IMG/VR virus record: IMGVR_UViG_2925939204_000007
Location: 1 to 39,985 of that record
Origin: a virus
Lineage: Duplodnaviria; Heunggongvirae; Uroviricota; Caudoviricetes
Direction: 5' to 3' (one strand)
DNA: 39,985 nt
The stretch's first letter is position 1, and every line of letters starts with the position of its first letter. The position numbers and the translations under genes were made by a program. Under the pieces are notes generated by a model that saw only the letters and a program-made list of their open reading frames with translations, was not told the DNA's origin and made no database searches. Below are positions 22,316 to 26,898 of the stretch, piece by piece.

Positions 22316-22936
22316 TTAAGCCAGTCGCAGCATGCACGTCCCGCACGCTCTGGCAATATCGAGATGAGCAACCTCCGCTGGCTGATTCGCCGCATCAATC
22401 ATTTCCTGCACGTCCCGGCTTGCACCGTAACGGCGAACCACGCCCACAAACTCTTCCACGTCATGACCGCGCAGCTTCAGCTTTGGCTGCCCTTCCTGCG
22501 TGAACTTCGGCGCGCCAAATTCATCTGTCGCCTGGCAGATGTGATAAAGCTCGTGCTCTATCAGCGCGCAGAACTCCAGATCGGAACATTGCGAACAGTA
22601 ATCGGCGGCGAGCGTGATGATGAAATGCGGCACCCTGCCGAACCATTCATACATCTGCTGCTCCATCCGCGCTTTCTGCCAGCCTCCGGCACGCATTGCC
22701 ACTTCTTCCGCCTGCCCCAGCACGGAACGCCCTTTCTTCTCGAAAGCGTTCGACGCCCAGAGAAAGCACAGATCCGCTTCAAGCAAATGCTGGTGGTCAG
22801 GGTTGTAGAGGTCACCCTCATCGCTCAGGATGTGCTGATTCAGCCACTCGCCAACGTCATTAGCGGGCATAATGCTGATGTACGGCTTCGGGTCAGGTGG
22901 CATCGTAAAATGCGCTGGTGGGTGTGGTCTGTTCAT
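22316..22936 (-). CDS. Putative zinc metallopeptidase-like protein (HExxH motif)
   Basis: 206 aa; ALIEHELYHI contains HELYH; several Cys near the C-terminus; located between lysis and packaging genes. Confidence 0.55.
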   Translation of the reverse strand: MNRPHPPAHFTMPPDPKPYISIMPANDVGEWLNQHILSDEGDLYNPDHQHLLEADLCFLWASNAFEKKGRSVLGQAEEVAMRAGGWQKARMEQQMYEWFGRVPHFIITLAADYCSQCSDLEFCALIEHELYHICQATDEFGAPKFTQEGQPKLKLRGHDVEEFVGVVRRYGASRDVQEMIDAANQPAEVAHLDIARACGTCMLRLA

Positions 22937-22990: not shown

Positions 22991-23176
22991 TCAGTCCCGG
23001 ACGAACGTAACCTTTGTGGTTATCATTCGCCGCACAAGGCGCGCCACTTCGCGTTGCATTTCATCAATTACTTTTGGCGTCAGTGGTTGATGCGCATATT
23101 TACGCTCAATCTCTGCAAAAATCCCGTTCAGCGCCTCGCTGCTTGGCGGGATAACTTCAACGTTTAATCGTGCCAT
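22991..23176 (-). CDS. Hypothetical small protein
   Basis: 61 aa ORF with ATG start between the spanin and the HExxH gene. Confidence 0.35.
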   Translation of the reverse strand: MARLNVEVIPPSSEALNGIFAEIERKYAHQPLTPKVIDEMQREVARLVRRMITTKVTFVRD

Positions 23177-23435: not shown

Positions 23436-23712
23436 CCGCAACAGCCACTTTGATATCTTCCTCGGTTCTCTGTGACTCCAGTGCGATCTGCTGCCTGGCA
23501 TATTGATTTGTCTCCAGAATGATGTTCGTTATTGCTACGGTGCGCAGGACATTCGCGGTGATGGTCTCAAAGGAATCAGCGCGCTGTTCTGCATCGTCAG
23601 CGCGCCGCTGTTCCTCCAGAAACTTTCCATGGTAATGATTCGCTGACCAGACAAGACCACCAGCAATACAAGCAATAAACGTTAAAATGAGCGCCCAATA
23701 ACTCATCTTCAT
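23320..23712 (-). CDS. i-spanin (Rz-like)
   Basis: 130 aa; N-terminal TM helix then charged coiled-coil-like region; start overlaps the endolysin stop. Confidence 0.65.
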   Translation of the reverse strand: MKMSYWALILTFIACIAGGLVWSANHYHGKFLEEQRRADDAEQRADSFETITANVLRTVAITNIILETNQYARQQIALESQRTEEDIKVAVADDDCAVRFVPSGAVKRLHDYANGLRSSSGGSVTSQPDG

Positions 23713-24323
23713 ACCAGCAGCGCCGCCCGCGCCTTGTTGTATCGGACCTTACGATCCTCAATACCGTTCAGACCGCCGTTAATGATGCGAGTAACACGAT
23801 TAATATCGGCACCGTAGATCATGCAGCCTTTAGAGGTGTAGAACCATGCAGCTGAGCGCGCAGCCTGTAGTTCCTGTTCCAGTTGTTCAGGTGAAGTCAC
23901 CAAATCTAACTTCAGAGCAGCCCCGCAGGTGCGATAATTGTCGAGGCCAGTGATTTGAATTAACCCTCTGCCGCGATATTTCCAGCCGTCGCCGGGCGCT
24001 TTGTTACCCAGGCGGTTGCTATACACCAGATTGGCAATAGCATCCTGACGAGCTGCATGTCCGGATGTTCTGCCAAGGGCATCAGCCTGCTGCTGTGTGA
24101 TCCTCTTTCCGAACGTCGCCACCAGCGCAGATGGTGTGTAGTTCAAATTTTCAACTACAGCGCTAAAGCCACCAGACTCATGACCTACCTGAGCGATGAA
24201 CATGGCCTGATCCGCGGGTGCTGTAATGCCGAATTCTTTCATCGCTGCATCTACTGGTTGAAACCAGCGCACAGCCAGTCCGGCGCTGATACCAGCCGCC
24301 TTTTGAAATAATTGTTGGTTCAT
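23709..24323 (-). CDS. Endolysin, glycoside hydrolase family 19 (chitinase-like lysozyme)
   Basis: 204 aa; motifs AQVGHESGGF... and YRGRGLIQITGLDNY typical of GH19 phage endolysins. Confidence 0.8.
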   Translation of the reverse strand: MNQQLFQKAAGISAGLAVRWFQPVDAAMKEFGITAPADQAMFIAQVGHESGGFSAVVENLNYTPSALVATFGKRITQQQADALGRTSGHAARQDAIANLVYSNRLGNKAPGDGWKYRGRGLIQITGLDNYRTCGAALKLDLVTSPEQLEQELQAARSAAWFYTSKGCMIYGADINRVTRIINGGLNGIEDRKVRYNKARAALLV

Positions 24324-24604
24324 TAGTGCCTCAGATGATCAACCAGGCGTGCAACGTTGCCTCTGACGGCCACCAGCACGGAAAGAAAAATAGTATTCGC
24401 CACGATAATGGGCCATGAGGAATGGGGATAAATCCCACAGAGATAGGCCAACGGAACAGCACTGTATGTAACAGTAATCAGCCAGGCTAAACGTGAAACC
24501 CAAGGACGATGCCGCGAATCACCACGACGATAAAACATCAGAGTAATAACAACACAAGCACATAACAGCGCGTTTATAGTTGCTGTCGGGTCATTTAGCT
24601 CCAC
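24323..24604 (-). CDS. Holin (putative)
   Basis: 93 aa, GTG start with GGGGAGG RBS; multiple hydrophobic helices; immediately upstream of the endolysin. Confidence 0.6.
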   Translation of the reverse strand: MELNDPTATINALLCACVVITLMFYRRGDSRHRPWVSRLAWLITVTYSAVPLAYLCGIYPHSSWPIIVANTIFLSVLVAVRGNVARLVDHLRH

Positions 24605-24977
24605 CTGAACCTCCCCGGCGCGTTATGAGCGCCACCAGCGACCCGATATCCTGATTATTCAGGAACGTCAGGATCTTAACGGCTAAAGCAGATACGATTA
24701 CGGCACCAATGGCATCCAGAGGTTTATCACTGTATCCGGTCAAGCTTGCCAGCTTGGAGCCAACCAACCCAGAGCAAAGGATCCCGGCAATATACGACAC
24801 GATAAAATATGCCAGTCGGCGCGATGCGCTCAGATCCGCTGCTGTTGCTATGTAGAATACAGCCCCTGCAAATGCGCCAAATACAACGCCGTAATCAGTT
24901 CCGGTCAGCAGTCCATAAACACTGGCACCCGTCAGGGCACCACCAGCCAGCCCAGTACCGGAAATTGGATCGGACAT
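24591..24977 (-). CDS. Holin-like membrane protein (holin or antiholin partner)
   Basis: 128 aa; Gly/Ala-rich TM segments; AGAGGGGG RBS; first gene of the lysis cassette. Confidence 0.55.
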   Translation of the reverse strand: MSDPISGTGLAGGALTGASVYGLLTGTDYGVVFGAFAGAVFYIATAADLSASRRLAYFIVSYIAGILCSGLVGSKLASLTGYSDKPLDAIGAVIVSALAVKILTFLNNQDIGSLVALITRRGGSGGAK

Positions 24978-25090
24978 TTAGCCCCCTCTTAATTGCTGTG
25001 AGTCCTCTCAGGTATGAGGGGAAATAGGCTCAGGCTTCACGGGTTGGATTTATCAACAAAGCACGTAGCGGATGATTACCGTGAGCCGGA

Positions 25091-25119
25091 AATAAAAAAG
25101 CCCCAGCGGGTGCCGGGGC
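25091..25119 (-). terminator. Rho-independent terminator-like hairpin upstream of the lysis cassette
   Basis: GCCCC...GGGGC stem followed on the - strand by UUUUUUAUUU. Confidence 0.45.
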
Positions 25120-25211
25120 GAGTTATAGATAAGTGCATGCTCTAGCAGCAAATCACTGTATTTGATATCGTTAAATCGCCAAAAATAACCCTATCAAACA
25201 TGGAGAATTAT

Positions 25212-25364
25212 ATGAGTGAATCAAACAAACCATCTGGAGAAAATAAGCCTCAACCCGCACCACAGCCTAAACCGGCTCCACAGCCAGCCGAAAGAAATCT
25301 GAGGACAGGTTATACCTTTGTTGCCGATTCTGCTGAAAACATCAGAAAAAAAGGTAAGTAAGTA
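25212..25364 (+). CDS. Small proline-rich protein (50 aa), hypothetical
   Basis: Not in the ORF track; GGAGAA 6 nt before ATG; MSESNKPSGENKPQPAPQPKPAPQPAERNLRTGYTFVADSAENIRKKGK; convergent with, and overlapping the 3' end of, the membrane-protein gene. Confidence 0.3.
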
Positions 25365-25911
25365 CTGAGATTACAAGTGCACAAACAGGGGTGAGGATTG
25401 TAGCGATCCTTACCCTTTCTAGTTCTCGGCCTATTCTGGCATTCTCTTTTTTACTCATTTCAGCCATTCTGGTTAAATCCGCAAGCCGGTAGCGCCGCAA
25501 GACGTTCAATGTTGAACGCTTTCCTGAAAATCCTTTCGACTCAAAACCAGTGTAATCATCTTCAGTAAACCCTTTATAGTCATCATGGTAAAGCGCATAG
25601 GGTGTCGATGACACGAGAGCTCGTGACCTTACAACGAGGACGCAGCGAACAAGATAAGCCGCACACATTGCCCAGTAGACTAAAAAAACAGACATTCCAG
25701 CGGTGAGGTAATCAAAACCTGTACGTTGCGTTAATAACAAAAATGACGAGCCCACGCCAGCAATGAGTATACTCAATAACTTCTGGCCATTTTCTTTGTT
25801 TAGTGCGTTGGACTGGTGAATTTCGCGTATACAATCCTCGCCCTGCTTCTCCAGAAAAGCAACGAGTTCGTCGTCCGCATCCAAAAAGTAATCATCGGGT
25901 AGATTATTCAT
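25342..25911 (-). CDS. Membrane protein of unknown function (moron between Q and lysis genes)
   Basis: 189 aa; 2-3 predicted TM helices; relatively AT-rich; flanked by terminator-like hairpins. Confidence 0.6.
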   Translation of the reverse strand: MNNLPDDYFLDADDELVAFLEKQGEDCIREIHQSNALNKENGQKLLSILIAGVGSSFLLLTQRTGFDYLTAGMSVFLVYWAMCAAYLVRCVLVVRSRALVSSTPYALYHDDYKGFTEDDYTGFESKGFSGKRSTLNVLRRYRLADLTRMAEMSKKENARIGRELERVRIATILTPVCALVISVLTYLFF

Positions 25912-25988
25912 TCCCCAACCTCACATCCTGTAATGCATCAATTTTACCTGAATGTCTCGAACCTTGGTATTGCTGTCTCCAGAAACGC

Positions 25989-26016
25989 AAAAAACCCCAC
26001 GGTGTTATCCGCAGGG
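25989..26016 (-). terminator. tR'-like terminator downstream of Q
   Basis: On - strand CCCUGCGG-AUAACA-CCGUGGGG (8-bp stem with two G-U pairs) followed by U6. Confidence 0.45.
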
Positions 26017-26115
26017 CTTGAAACGAAGGCATTAACCCATCGTTGGGACAAAATTAACACAGATTCGGGAAAAGTAAATAGCCCAAGACAAAATCATAGG
26101 CTATCGCTATAGGCG

Positions 26116-26898
26116 TTACCGCGTTATCTGCTTAAGCTGTTTTTCGGCCCAGGACTCTTCGATATCAAATTTCGTGATCAGCAGGTCGTAGAATGGCTTA
26201 ACAGACTTTTTCCAGGTGTCCAGGCTAATGGCGTCAGTAATCTGGCATACAGCAGCATAGGCTTCAGTCGACGGAAGTCGTTCATACCCACGCCCTCCGC
26301 AGCGCTTACAGTCAGCCAGAACAGGAACGCCCTGTTTCTCAGTAAGAGCCTGGTTCACTGCCTTGCCGCGCCCATGGCAATCACTGCAAGAAGCACTAAC
26401 CACACCAGAGCCATTACACTTTTTGCATAGCACTTTGATGGATTCTTTGACCTTCACCATCCCGGACACGGTCATTTTCCCTTCTGGCTTACGGAATTTA
26501 TTGGTAAACACGTCAGCCTCAATGAAGCCCTGACCGTCACAACAATCGCACTGCTTCACGCTGGCAGCGCTGCGGGAATAGTCCTCAAAAGCGAAGGTGG
26601 CCAACTGGTGCATCACCTGAGGTTTAACCGCGGCACCGAGCTTACGCAGTGCGGCAACCTTGTCGCATTTTGTCATCGCGTACTCAGCCAGCAGACCGAT
26701 CGCCCGATCCCGGTCGTTATTGCTTATGCCCATCTTGCCGAGGAAGGCGCTGTAACCCATTGCGGCGCGTTCCTGCGTCATGCCCATGGCAGCCATTATG
26801 TCGGTACCGGTCAGTGAATCGGAGGCGGTAGCGCGCGGAGAATCGCTAATCAGTGTGGATTTAGCGAAGTGGTATTTCACTGTGTTTTCAAGGTTCAT
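26116..26898 (-). CDS. Late-gene antitermination protein Q-like
   Basis: 260 aa; multiple CxxC zinc-finger-like pairs; position downstream of rusA and upstream of the lysis cassette. Confidence 0.75.
   Translation of the reverse strand: MNLENTVKYHFAKSTLISDSPRATASDSLTGTDIMAAMGMTQERAAMGYSAFLGKMGISNNDRDRAIGLLAEYAMTKCDKVAALRKLGAAVKPQVMHQLATFAFEDYSRSAASVKQCDCCDGQGFIEADVFTNKFRKPEGKMTVSGMVKVKESIKVLCKKCNGSGVVSASCSDCHGRGKAVNQALTEKQGVPVLADCKRCGGRGYERLPSTEAYAAVCQITDAISLDTWKKSVKPFYDLLITKFDIEESWAEKQLKQITR

Follow-up and report, generated by a model that had tools for sequence, protein, structure and literature searches.

What is carried between the antiterminator gene Q and the lysis genes in the Caudoviricetes genome recorded as IMGVR_UViG_2925939204_000007, and what might it do there? 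We analysed positions 1 to 39,985 of that record, the stretch of 39,985 nucleotides (nt) that is called the window below. Its late genes run along the minus strand in the order Q, an interval of ~1.1 kb, two holin-family genes, a GH19 endolysin gene and Rz/Rz1. The interval holds two genes that meet tail to tail: one on the minus strand for a 189-residue inner-membrane protein (25342..25911), and one on the plus strand for a protein of 49 residues (25212..25361), with an overlap of 20 nt at their 3' ends. The feature is real; it is not an artefact, nor has it been accounted for before. We find a two-gene cargo cassette, widespread and unusual in its antisense coupling. The obligate, conserved pairing of the two open reading frames (ORFs) and the antisense link between them go beyond the account given in the original prediction, an earlier reading of this DNA made from its letters.

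Two convergent genes that occur together

How strict is the association of the two genes? We fetched 7 genomic and 80 viral loci and read about 85 loci in all, down to 35-55% identity. Every locus with an intact homologue of the 189-residue gene also has a convergent ORF of 34-79 residues, mostly 47-56, the upper size being that of one group of loci, and the 3' ends overlap by 17-35 nt. The pairing persists where the large proteins are ~50% identical and the small ones ~35%, and among the loci read an intact 189-residue gene was always accompanied by an intact small gene. The Leclercia locus has a frameshift in the membrane gene beside an undamaged small gene.

Is the small ORF itself a gene? 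The original prediction described a convergent, proline-rich ORF of 50 residues at 25212-25364 with a strong ribosome-binding site (RBS). The ORF is present, with GGAG 6 nt 5' of the ATG at 25212, but its stop codon lies at 25359-25361 and not at 25364, which gives 49 residues. The RBS is conserved in diverse cassettes. An in-frame ATG 12 nt further upstream, at 25200, would give 53 residues; because it overlaps the RBS and is rarely conserved as a start elsewhere, the ATG at 25212 is the likely start. The median pairwise ratio of non-synonymous to synonymous substitution rates (dN/dS) is 0.39 for the small gene, in which the third codon position is the most variable, and 0.09 for the 189-residue gene, whose codon positions likewise vary in the manner of coding sequence. 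Judged by these substitution patterns, the small ORF is a real gene, and both genes are under purifying selection.

The small proteins have in common a start of the form MSxxNKP, a Pro/Gln-rich stretch and the C-terminal motif x-R-x-x-V-(G/A)-D-S-A-(D/E)-x-x-R-K-K. The window's copy (RefSeq entry WP_162842358.1) belongs to PHROG 14506, a family without an assigned function, and Pfam, NCBIfam and PADLOC scans with it gave no match. The protein is hydrophilic and proline-rich and is predicted to be mostly disordered, with a short C-terminal helix.

How is the small gene transcribed? A 30-nt block 5' of the ORF is more conserved than its coding sequence. We read this block as an extended −10 promoter (25163..25171, plus strand), with TG at 25163-25164, one free position and TATCGT at 25166-25171, and with transcription expected to start at ~25178. 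We prefer this reading because it accounts for exactly the invariant columns: TG, T−12, A−11 and T−7 are invariant or nearly so across 30 diverse cassettes, in the pattern TG-n-T-A-T-n-n-T, and the same site recurs as the best position by position weight matrix (PWM). In Gallibacterium, the equivalent position has a canonical TTGCCA-17-TATAAT. Readings of the block, by eye, as a sigma32, sigmaE, sigma28 or sigma54 site were dropped.

The discriminator and the first ~20 nt of the predicted 5' untranslated region (UTR) of the small gene (TAAATCGCCAAAAxTAACC; 25172-25199, plus strand) are also more conserved than the coding sequence. Pairing of this 5' UTR with the 5' UTR or RBS of the 189-residue mRNA was considered and rejected, its mean z being 0.03 against shuffles. 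Many cassettes have a second hairpin ~70-100 nt 5' of the small ORF (for example loci L008, L074 and L065), which is weak in the window (25135-25150). It takes the form GCCAGA-loop-TCTGGC, with the variants CCAGT/ACTGG and GCCGC/GCGGC, an apparent covariation judged by eye only, and it lies in the stretch from the terminator of the cassette to the promoter of the small gene, where it overlaps the −35 region.

A conserved hairpin on the antisense strand

Does the small-gene transcript reach into its neighbour? A conserved RNA hairpin with 11 base pairs (bp) and a 7-nt loop lies at 25388..25416 (plus strand), inside the 189-residue coding sequence and 27-55 nt past the stop codon of the small ORF, and it was found in every cassette folded. 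Across 37 distinct sequences, 96.6% of the hairpin's cells pair on the plus strand, as against 80.3% on the minus strand, the difference being owed to 68 G.U cells; compensatory double changes occur at four of the pairs (44 cells), and 0 of 500 shuffles were as good. Since the 68 G.U cells pair only on the plus strand, selection has acted on RNA from the strand of the small gene.

At the level of sequence, this pairing shows that the small-gene transcript runs antisense into the 189-residue gene, reaching at least 55-75 nt into its coding sequence. We predict a small-gene RNA of ~245 nt, from ~25178 to ~25424, just beyond the hairpin. An RNA of this extent would therefore be able to pair with the final ~80 nt of the 189-residue coding sequence and with the whole of its 3' UTR, and the hairpin is probably the 3' end or terminator of the transcript. 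On the other strand, the arms of the hairpin encode RVRI and ILTP (residues 166-176 of the membrane protein), and the RNA structure may be shaping the sequence of the protein encoded opposite to it. In the protein alignment, the arm-encoded residues tend to co-vary, RVR..ILTP versus RAR..ILAP, with exceptions.

The 189-residue membrane protein

What kind of protein does the larger gene encode? The gene was found on the minus strand exactly where the original prediction had put it, and the multi-pass membrane character ascribed to its product agrees with the hydropathy profile, which has two strong transmembrane segments (residues ~69-94 and ~168-189) and one weaker segment (~44-61). The first 43 residues are acidic, 15 Lys or Arg residues fall within residues 95-167, and the first hydrophobic helix is rich in small residues and contains GxGSSF. 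In an AlphaFold2 model (predicted local distance difference test score 79), residues 14-62, 68-92 and 134-188 form long helices and residues 97-133 are poorly defined. The topology is likely N-in/C-out, with both soluble parts in the cytoplasm.

The protein matches PHROG 11870 (E=6e-84), a family without an assigned function, and nothing in Pfam, NCBIfam or PADLOC. The lack of a lysis-gene signature, remarked on earlier, was borne out by the absence of any holin or lysis family match in Pfam and PHROG. Its 115 homologues across Enterobacterales are nearly all exactly 189 residues long, and every one of them is named 'hypothetical'. A Pfam scan of ten remote relatives and a Protein Data Bank sequence search with the protein itself gave no match. 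Homology to the exclusion proteins SieB and RexB was rejected, with hhalign probabilities of 0.05% and 0.75%, respectively, and no Pfam SieB match.

The gene may have a promoter of its own. A −10 hexamer TAAAAT (25941..25946, minus strand) lies 35 nt 5' of the ATG within the conserved CATTCAGGTAAAAT, and in most of 58 distinct upstream regions it is retained at 34-41 nt from the ATG while the neighbouring sequence diverges. In the window, the −35 element is poor and the site scores a PWM value of 5.1 versus a shuffle median of 5.8. We regard the TAAAAT site as a candidate weak promoter.

An insert at the junction of Q and the lysis genes

Is the pair a native part of the late operon? We aligned the interval of the window with those of its relatives with the same flanks, namely phages HK225 and mEp237 and a prophage in E. 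coli KL53. In the alignment, the four phages part ways right after TTTCTGGAG (25985..25977) and become alike again at the distal terminator's T-run; the insert is therefore placed at ~25100-25976, a cassette of ~877 bp (25100..25976). The GC content of the cassette is 44.4%, compared with 52.7-52.8% in both flanks. At the same site HK225 has a 136-residue ORF on the opposite strand, mEp237 has a 213-residue ORF, and KL53 has ~250 bp without an annotated gene. Among 80 complete E. coli genomes with the same flanks, five have the cassette as their cargo. The suggestion that the interval between Q and the holin gene holds inserted cargo is thus upheld by a site that is polymorphic among close relatives and by a foreign composition. 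The pattern, as read from the alignments, is that of a classic moron at a classic cargo site. The 'empty' site of KL53 (locus L003, ~2700-2940), which follows the leader terminator tR' described below, is largely common to mEp237, where it lies upstream of that phage's own cargo. Rfam gave no match for the interval or for the 'empty' sites of relatives, including the ~250 bp of KL53.

The original prediction had two hairpin-plus-U terminators bracketing the insertion. Both are present; they are the two strongest sites of the region, and their positions are conserved in related phages. Only the distal one is borne by the cassette, however, the one next to Q being the native tR', which is found with or without cargo. 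The cassette's late-strand terminator (25090..25119, minus strand; terminator scan) consists of the stem GCCCCGGCACCCGCTGGGGC followed by TTTTTTATTT, the hairpin (25119-25100) having 8 pairs, of which 7 are GC. Its stem differs among the four phages, and the tail TTTTTTATTTC(A/C)GG is common to all of them. In most other phages, too, a terminator accompanies the cassette. Over the whole region, the terminator scan returned 6 terminator-like sites versus 3.1 +/- 2.0 in shuffles, so that there is no overall enrichment.

Where does late transcription start? The late promoter had been held impossible to place with confidence, and its candidate, TTTACT...TAATTT, had been called weak. The candidate is real. 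It lies within ~110 nt 3' of the Q stop codon that are essentially invariant in the window, KL53, HK225 and mEp237; it aligns with lambda pR'; and it is the top PWM match within the interval. This late promoter, pR' (26039..26078, minus strand), has a −35 element TTTACT (26078..26073; TTGACT in lambda) and a −10 element TAATTT (26056..26051; TAAATT in lambda), separated by a 16-nt spacer. The window and lambda pR' have an identical 15-nt stretch, CAACGATGGGTTAAT, and this includes the −10-like element AACGAT (26044..26039, minus strand), which we take, from what is established for lambda pR', to be the sigma70-dependent pause signal. Q itself (26116..26898, minus strand; 260 residues) is of the lambda Q type (PF03589, E=2e-45; PHROG 127) and is 37% identical to lambda Q over the full length by tblastn.

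Because the invariant block aligns with lambda pR' and Q is homologous to lambda Q, we identify the hairpin at 26019-25992 (11 pairs, followed by a T-run) as tR', the phage-native terminator of the pR' leader (25986..26019, minus strand; terminator scan). It ends a leader of ~60 nt and is kept in the relatives regardless of cargo, and the depositors of HK225 label the same element a rho-independent terminator. The components of a lambda-type pR'-tR' region, a sigma70 promoter after Q, a pause element and an intrinsic terminator, are all found here, and the alignment allows the late promoter to be located with confidence. The likeness to lambda pR'-qut-tR' lies in similar −35 and −10 elements and spacing, a homologous Q, identity over the first 15 transcribed nt with AACGAT among them, and a terminator downstream. 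The differences are a leader of ~60 nt in the window versus the ~194-nt 6S RNA of lambda, and weaker −10 and −35 elements (PWM 7.3 versus 12.9).

On the far side of the cassette, in the flank, a conserved non-coding block of ~75 nt (25021..25095, minus strand) precedes the holin gene. It is nearly invariant in the four phages, which differ in cargo and holin, and is also found in Citrobacter phage Chris1. The block has a possible long-range stem, GGCTCACGG/CCGTGAAGCC, and the fold z-score of 24975-25125 is −2.35; it might act as an RNA element in the late transcript, or serve as a linker for recombination. The lysis cassette, on the minus strand, then begins with a PF16931 holin gene (24591..24977; Pfam, PHROG and RefSeq), followed by a second holin gene (PF05449, 24323-24604), the GH19 endolysin gene (23709-24323) and, downstream, Rz/Rz1. 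Directly 3' of Rz/Rz1 lie a 206-residue ORF (22316-22936, minus strand), which bears the RefSeq name 'putative metallopeptidase', and a 61-residue ORF (22991-23176, minus strand), and a DUF2280 gene comes next after both. These two ORFs, set between lysis and packaging genes, are possibly additional accessory cargo.

Distribution and genomic neighbourhoods

How common is the pair, and does it keep company with one set of lysis genes? A profile search of 1.84 billion representatives returned 97 clusters, at least 241 of the 5,426 complete E. coli genomes proved by DNA search to have a member of the family, E. coli WEM25, CH468, LR-33 and GPEC60-12-649 have the very cassette of the window, and the pair spans three bacterial orders, Enterobacterales, Pasteurellales and Neisseriales. 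Most E. coli carriers have it in a prophage with trkG beside the lysis genes, where the cassette lies between DUF1133 and a lambda-family holin gene. This trkG-adjacent form, the commonest E. coli variant, is seen in vB_EcoS-673R7 (locus L093, 5820-7295) and in NCTC9041 (locus L102, 1-417). A reading of NCTC9041 as an orphan small gene was rejected: it is a deletion remnant that has lost Q and the 189-residue gene, and all that is left of the cassette is the promoter of the small gene together with that gene's 5' end.

The pair is located either after a lambda-type Q or after a 181-residue DUF1133/'Q' protein, and the lysis sets downstream of it comprise PF16931/PF05449/GH19, lambda S with GH104 or GH24, and others. 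Citrobacter phage Chris1, an isolated phage, has the lysis cassette of the window and the block upstream of it, with a uspF-like cargo gene in place of the pair. In Gallibacterium and Vitreoscilla prophages, remote relatives of the membrane gene are found just downstream of cI, co-oriented with the early-left genes. There, too, a convergent, 3'-overlapping small ORF is present (45 residues in Gallibacterium, 34 in Vitreoscilla) with a related C-terminal sequence, and Vitreoscilla has a hairpin with the same geometry as that of the window. A single rule of orientation describes both contexts, the membrane gene running along the flanking lytic operon and the small gene opposing it. In the Vitreoscilla sp. 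C1 prophage (locus L095, 4174-4500), the remote relative lies two genes 3' of a gene of the Acb2/Tad1-hairpin family. This is an anti-defence sponge family, and its presence there, in the cI-proximal region, suggests an accessory or counter-defence neighbourhood.

Membership of a holin or lysis-accessory family was not found for the 189-residue protein, nor was a constant association with a lysis cassette. Because Chris1 shares the lysis cassette without the pair, and because the remote relatives adjoin cI, we conclude from this distribution that the pair is accessory cargo and not lysis machinery. The protein accessions and PHROG identifiers went unmentioned in the literature searched, and a topic search returned no description of the pair.

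Proposed mechanism and rival explanations

How might two such genes work together? We propose that the cassette is a mobile moron in which a membrane effector of the lytic phase is paired with an antisense small gene that acts as a brake during lysogeny; our confidence in this proposal falls somewhat short of an even chance. In the lysogen, transcripts from pR' would end at tR' and the small gene would be on. The 189-residue gene would be expressed at most weakly, from its own poor promoter, and convergent transcription, antisense pairing and perhaps the small protein would all work against its mRNA. Polymerase modified by lambda Q ignores terminators, as is well established. On induction, Q-modified polymerase would pass tR', the cassette and the cassette terminator into the lysis genes, the membrane protein would be made in quantity, and the converging small-gene promoter would be silenced. 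Our best guess is that the 189-residue protein is a membrane effector of the lytic phase, perhaps harmful under certain conditions, and of the type that brings about exclusion or abortive infection. We favour such an effector because of the cargo status of the pair, its location at sites of exclusion and defence genes, and its gated expression. A further step, which we offer as speculation and consider doubtful, is that the small-gene transcript is a dual-function RNA, encoding the ~49-residue protein and acting as a cis-antisense regulator, and that the cassette is an undescribed prophage 'lysogeny lock' module, able to move from the Q-holin junction to the neighbourhood of cI and back across the three orders, which could amount to a new system of exclusion or abortive infection, or else to a toxin-antitoxin system of a new type.

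Several points weigh against the proposal of a lytic-phase effector with a lysogeny brake. The timing of expression is read from sequence alone, and the toxicity of the membrane effector is putative, a property that it possibly has. In PADLOC-DB 2.0, neither cassette protein matches any defence family at E <= 1, and structure searches with the 189-residue model returned generic long-helix or helical-bundle (BAR-like) matches only. If the TAAAAT site is a working promoter in lysogens, as it could be, the restriction of the effector to the lytic phase becomes less secure. The antisense hairpin is followed by a weak U-tract (on average 3.4 T in 9 nt), and for this reason the hairpin is perhaps a stabiliser of the transcript and not an efficient terminator. 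Finally, the extended −10 promoter leaves the conservation of 25172-25199 unexplained.

Could the membrane protein instead protect the lysogen? It might be the product of a lysogenic-conversion moron, made constitutively from its own promoter and acting in the inner membrane as a superinfection exclusion protein that blocks DNA entry, with the small gene independent or modulatory. The TAAAAT hexamer at a conserved distance from the ATG fits such a role, as do a cassette terminator that would insulate the holin gene, the foreign GC content at a known cargo site, and the position of the remote relatives beside cI, which is that of lambda's rexAB. We nevertheless think this explanation rather unlikely, given that the −35 element in the window is poor and the promoter scores under the shuffle median, that almost nothing of the protein is predicted to be exposed to the periplasm beyond a 6-residue loop and the C-terminus, and that there is neither similarity to SieB or RexB nor a PADLOC match. 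The strict pairing with 3' overlap and the antisense hairpin, moreover, argue for genes that are functionally coupled. Another rival is a toxin-antitoxin or addiction module, in which the membrane protein would be the toxin and the small gene, as RNA, protein or both, the antitoxin, with the main purpose of keeping the prophage stable or of aborting infection by other phages. The convergent 3' overlap recalls TxpA/RatA and BsrG/SR4, no intact 189-residue gene was seen without its small partner intact, and in Leclercia the small gene is intact beside a frameshifted membrane gene. Against it stand the size of the putative toxin (189 residues versus peptides of <60), the conserved protein encoded by the putative antitoxin RNA, the putative nature of the toxicity itself, and the steady co-orientation with strong lytic operons, which suggests production in lytic growth. 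We judge this module improbable; it overlaps with the proposed lytic-phase effector and brake and differs from it mainly in purpose.

A part in lysis is the least likely of the rivals and, to our minds, a distant prospect. A multi-pass membrane protein encoded on the late strand directly upstream of the holin gene, with GxGSSF in its first hydrophobic helix, could be an antiholin, a regulator of lysis timing or an extra holin, and the original prediction had entertained a lysis regulator, alongside a superinfection-exclusion protein and late-expressed cargo. The protein matches no holin or lysis family, however; at least three unrelated holin/endolysin sets accompany the pair; the isolated phage Chris1, whose lysis cassette is the same, does without the pair; and the Gallibacterium and Vitreoscilla copies sit in the cI/early-left region, far from lysis genes.

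Comparison with known systems

The cassette is common, yet it is annotated merely as two hypothetical proteins. Seen as an obligate antisense-coupled pair it becomes a concrete unit, a candidate for a new membrane effector with a lysogeny/lysis switch or for an exclusion or abortive-infection system, and it would offer a clean example of an RNA hairpin that constrains a protein-coding sequence on the opposite strand.

Which known systems does it resemble? Lambdoid phages carry Shiga toxin (stx) and other cargo at the junction of Q and the lysis genes, and since this junction is a cargo site, its content would be massively expressed on induction. The cassette resembles the late-operon morons of these phages (stx; the cargo of HK225 and mEp237) in occupying the same site, from pR'-tR' to the holin gene, in its presence/absence polymorphism, in its foreign GC content and in having its own terminator, with which it could be read independently or by Q-antiterminated late transcription. 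As to a promoter of its own, the small gene has the conserved extended −10 element, and the 189-residue gene has TAAAAT but, in the window, a poor −35. The cassette differs from these morons in being a convergent, antisense-coupled pair of genes and not a single unit of promoter, gene and terminator for a toxin or surface protein.

The arrangement of the two genes finds its parallel elsewhere. In B. subtilis, TxpA/RatA (skin) and BsrG/SR4 (SPbeta) are prophage type I toxin-antitoxin pairs with convergent 3' overlap. Like them, the cassette is prophage-borne and has a membrane-targeted protein and a convergent transcript that overlaps its 3' end. In contrast to them, its membrane protein has 189 residues with long cytoplasmic helices, and its antisense transcript encodes a conserved protein of ~49 residues. 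The cassette thus has the 3'-overlapping convergent transcript of a type I system without the small-peptide toxin or the non-coding antitoxin, and it falls outside the type I definition because its membrane protein is large and its antisense RNA is coding. For antisense control of an exclusion gene there is said to be a precedent in the work of Ranade and Poteete on sieB, which is reportedly controlled by an antisense RNA (sas). The 189-residue protein resembles SieB of P22 and lambda and RexAB of lambda in being a membrane protein of similar size (lambda SieB has 184 residues) with remote relatives encoded in the cI-proximal region, but hhalign detects no homology and the arrangement of the genes is different.

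A functional analogy to the proposed division of expression is Tai/Ati, encoded by orf63/orf64 of phi80, a two-gene prophage moron with one gene active in the lysogen and the other transcribed late, in dependence on Q (PMC11364771). The Tai/Ati genes lie upstream of the packaging module, and their products are soluble and act on tail assembly (PMC11364771). No sequence relation connects them with the present pair, and they lack its antisense overlap. What the two would share is a set of cargo genes split between lysogenic and Q-dependent expression.

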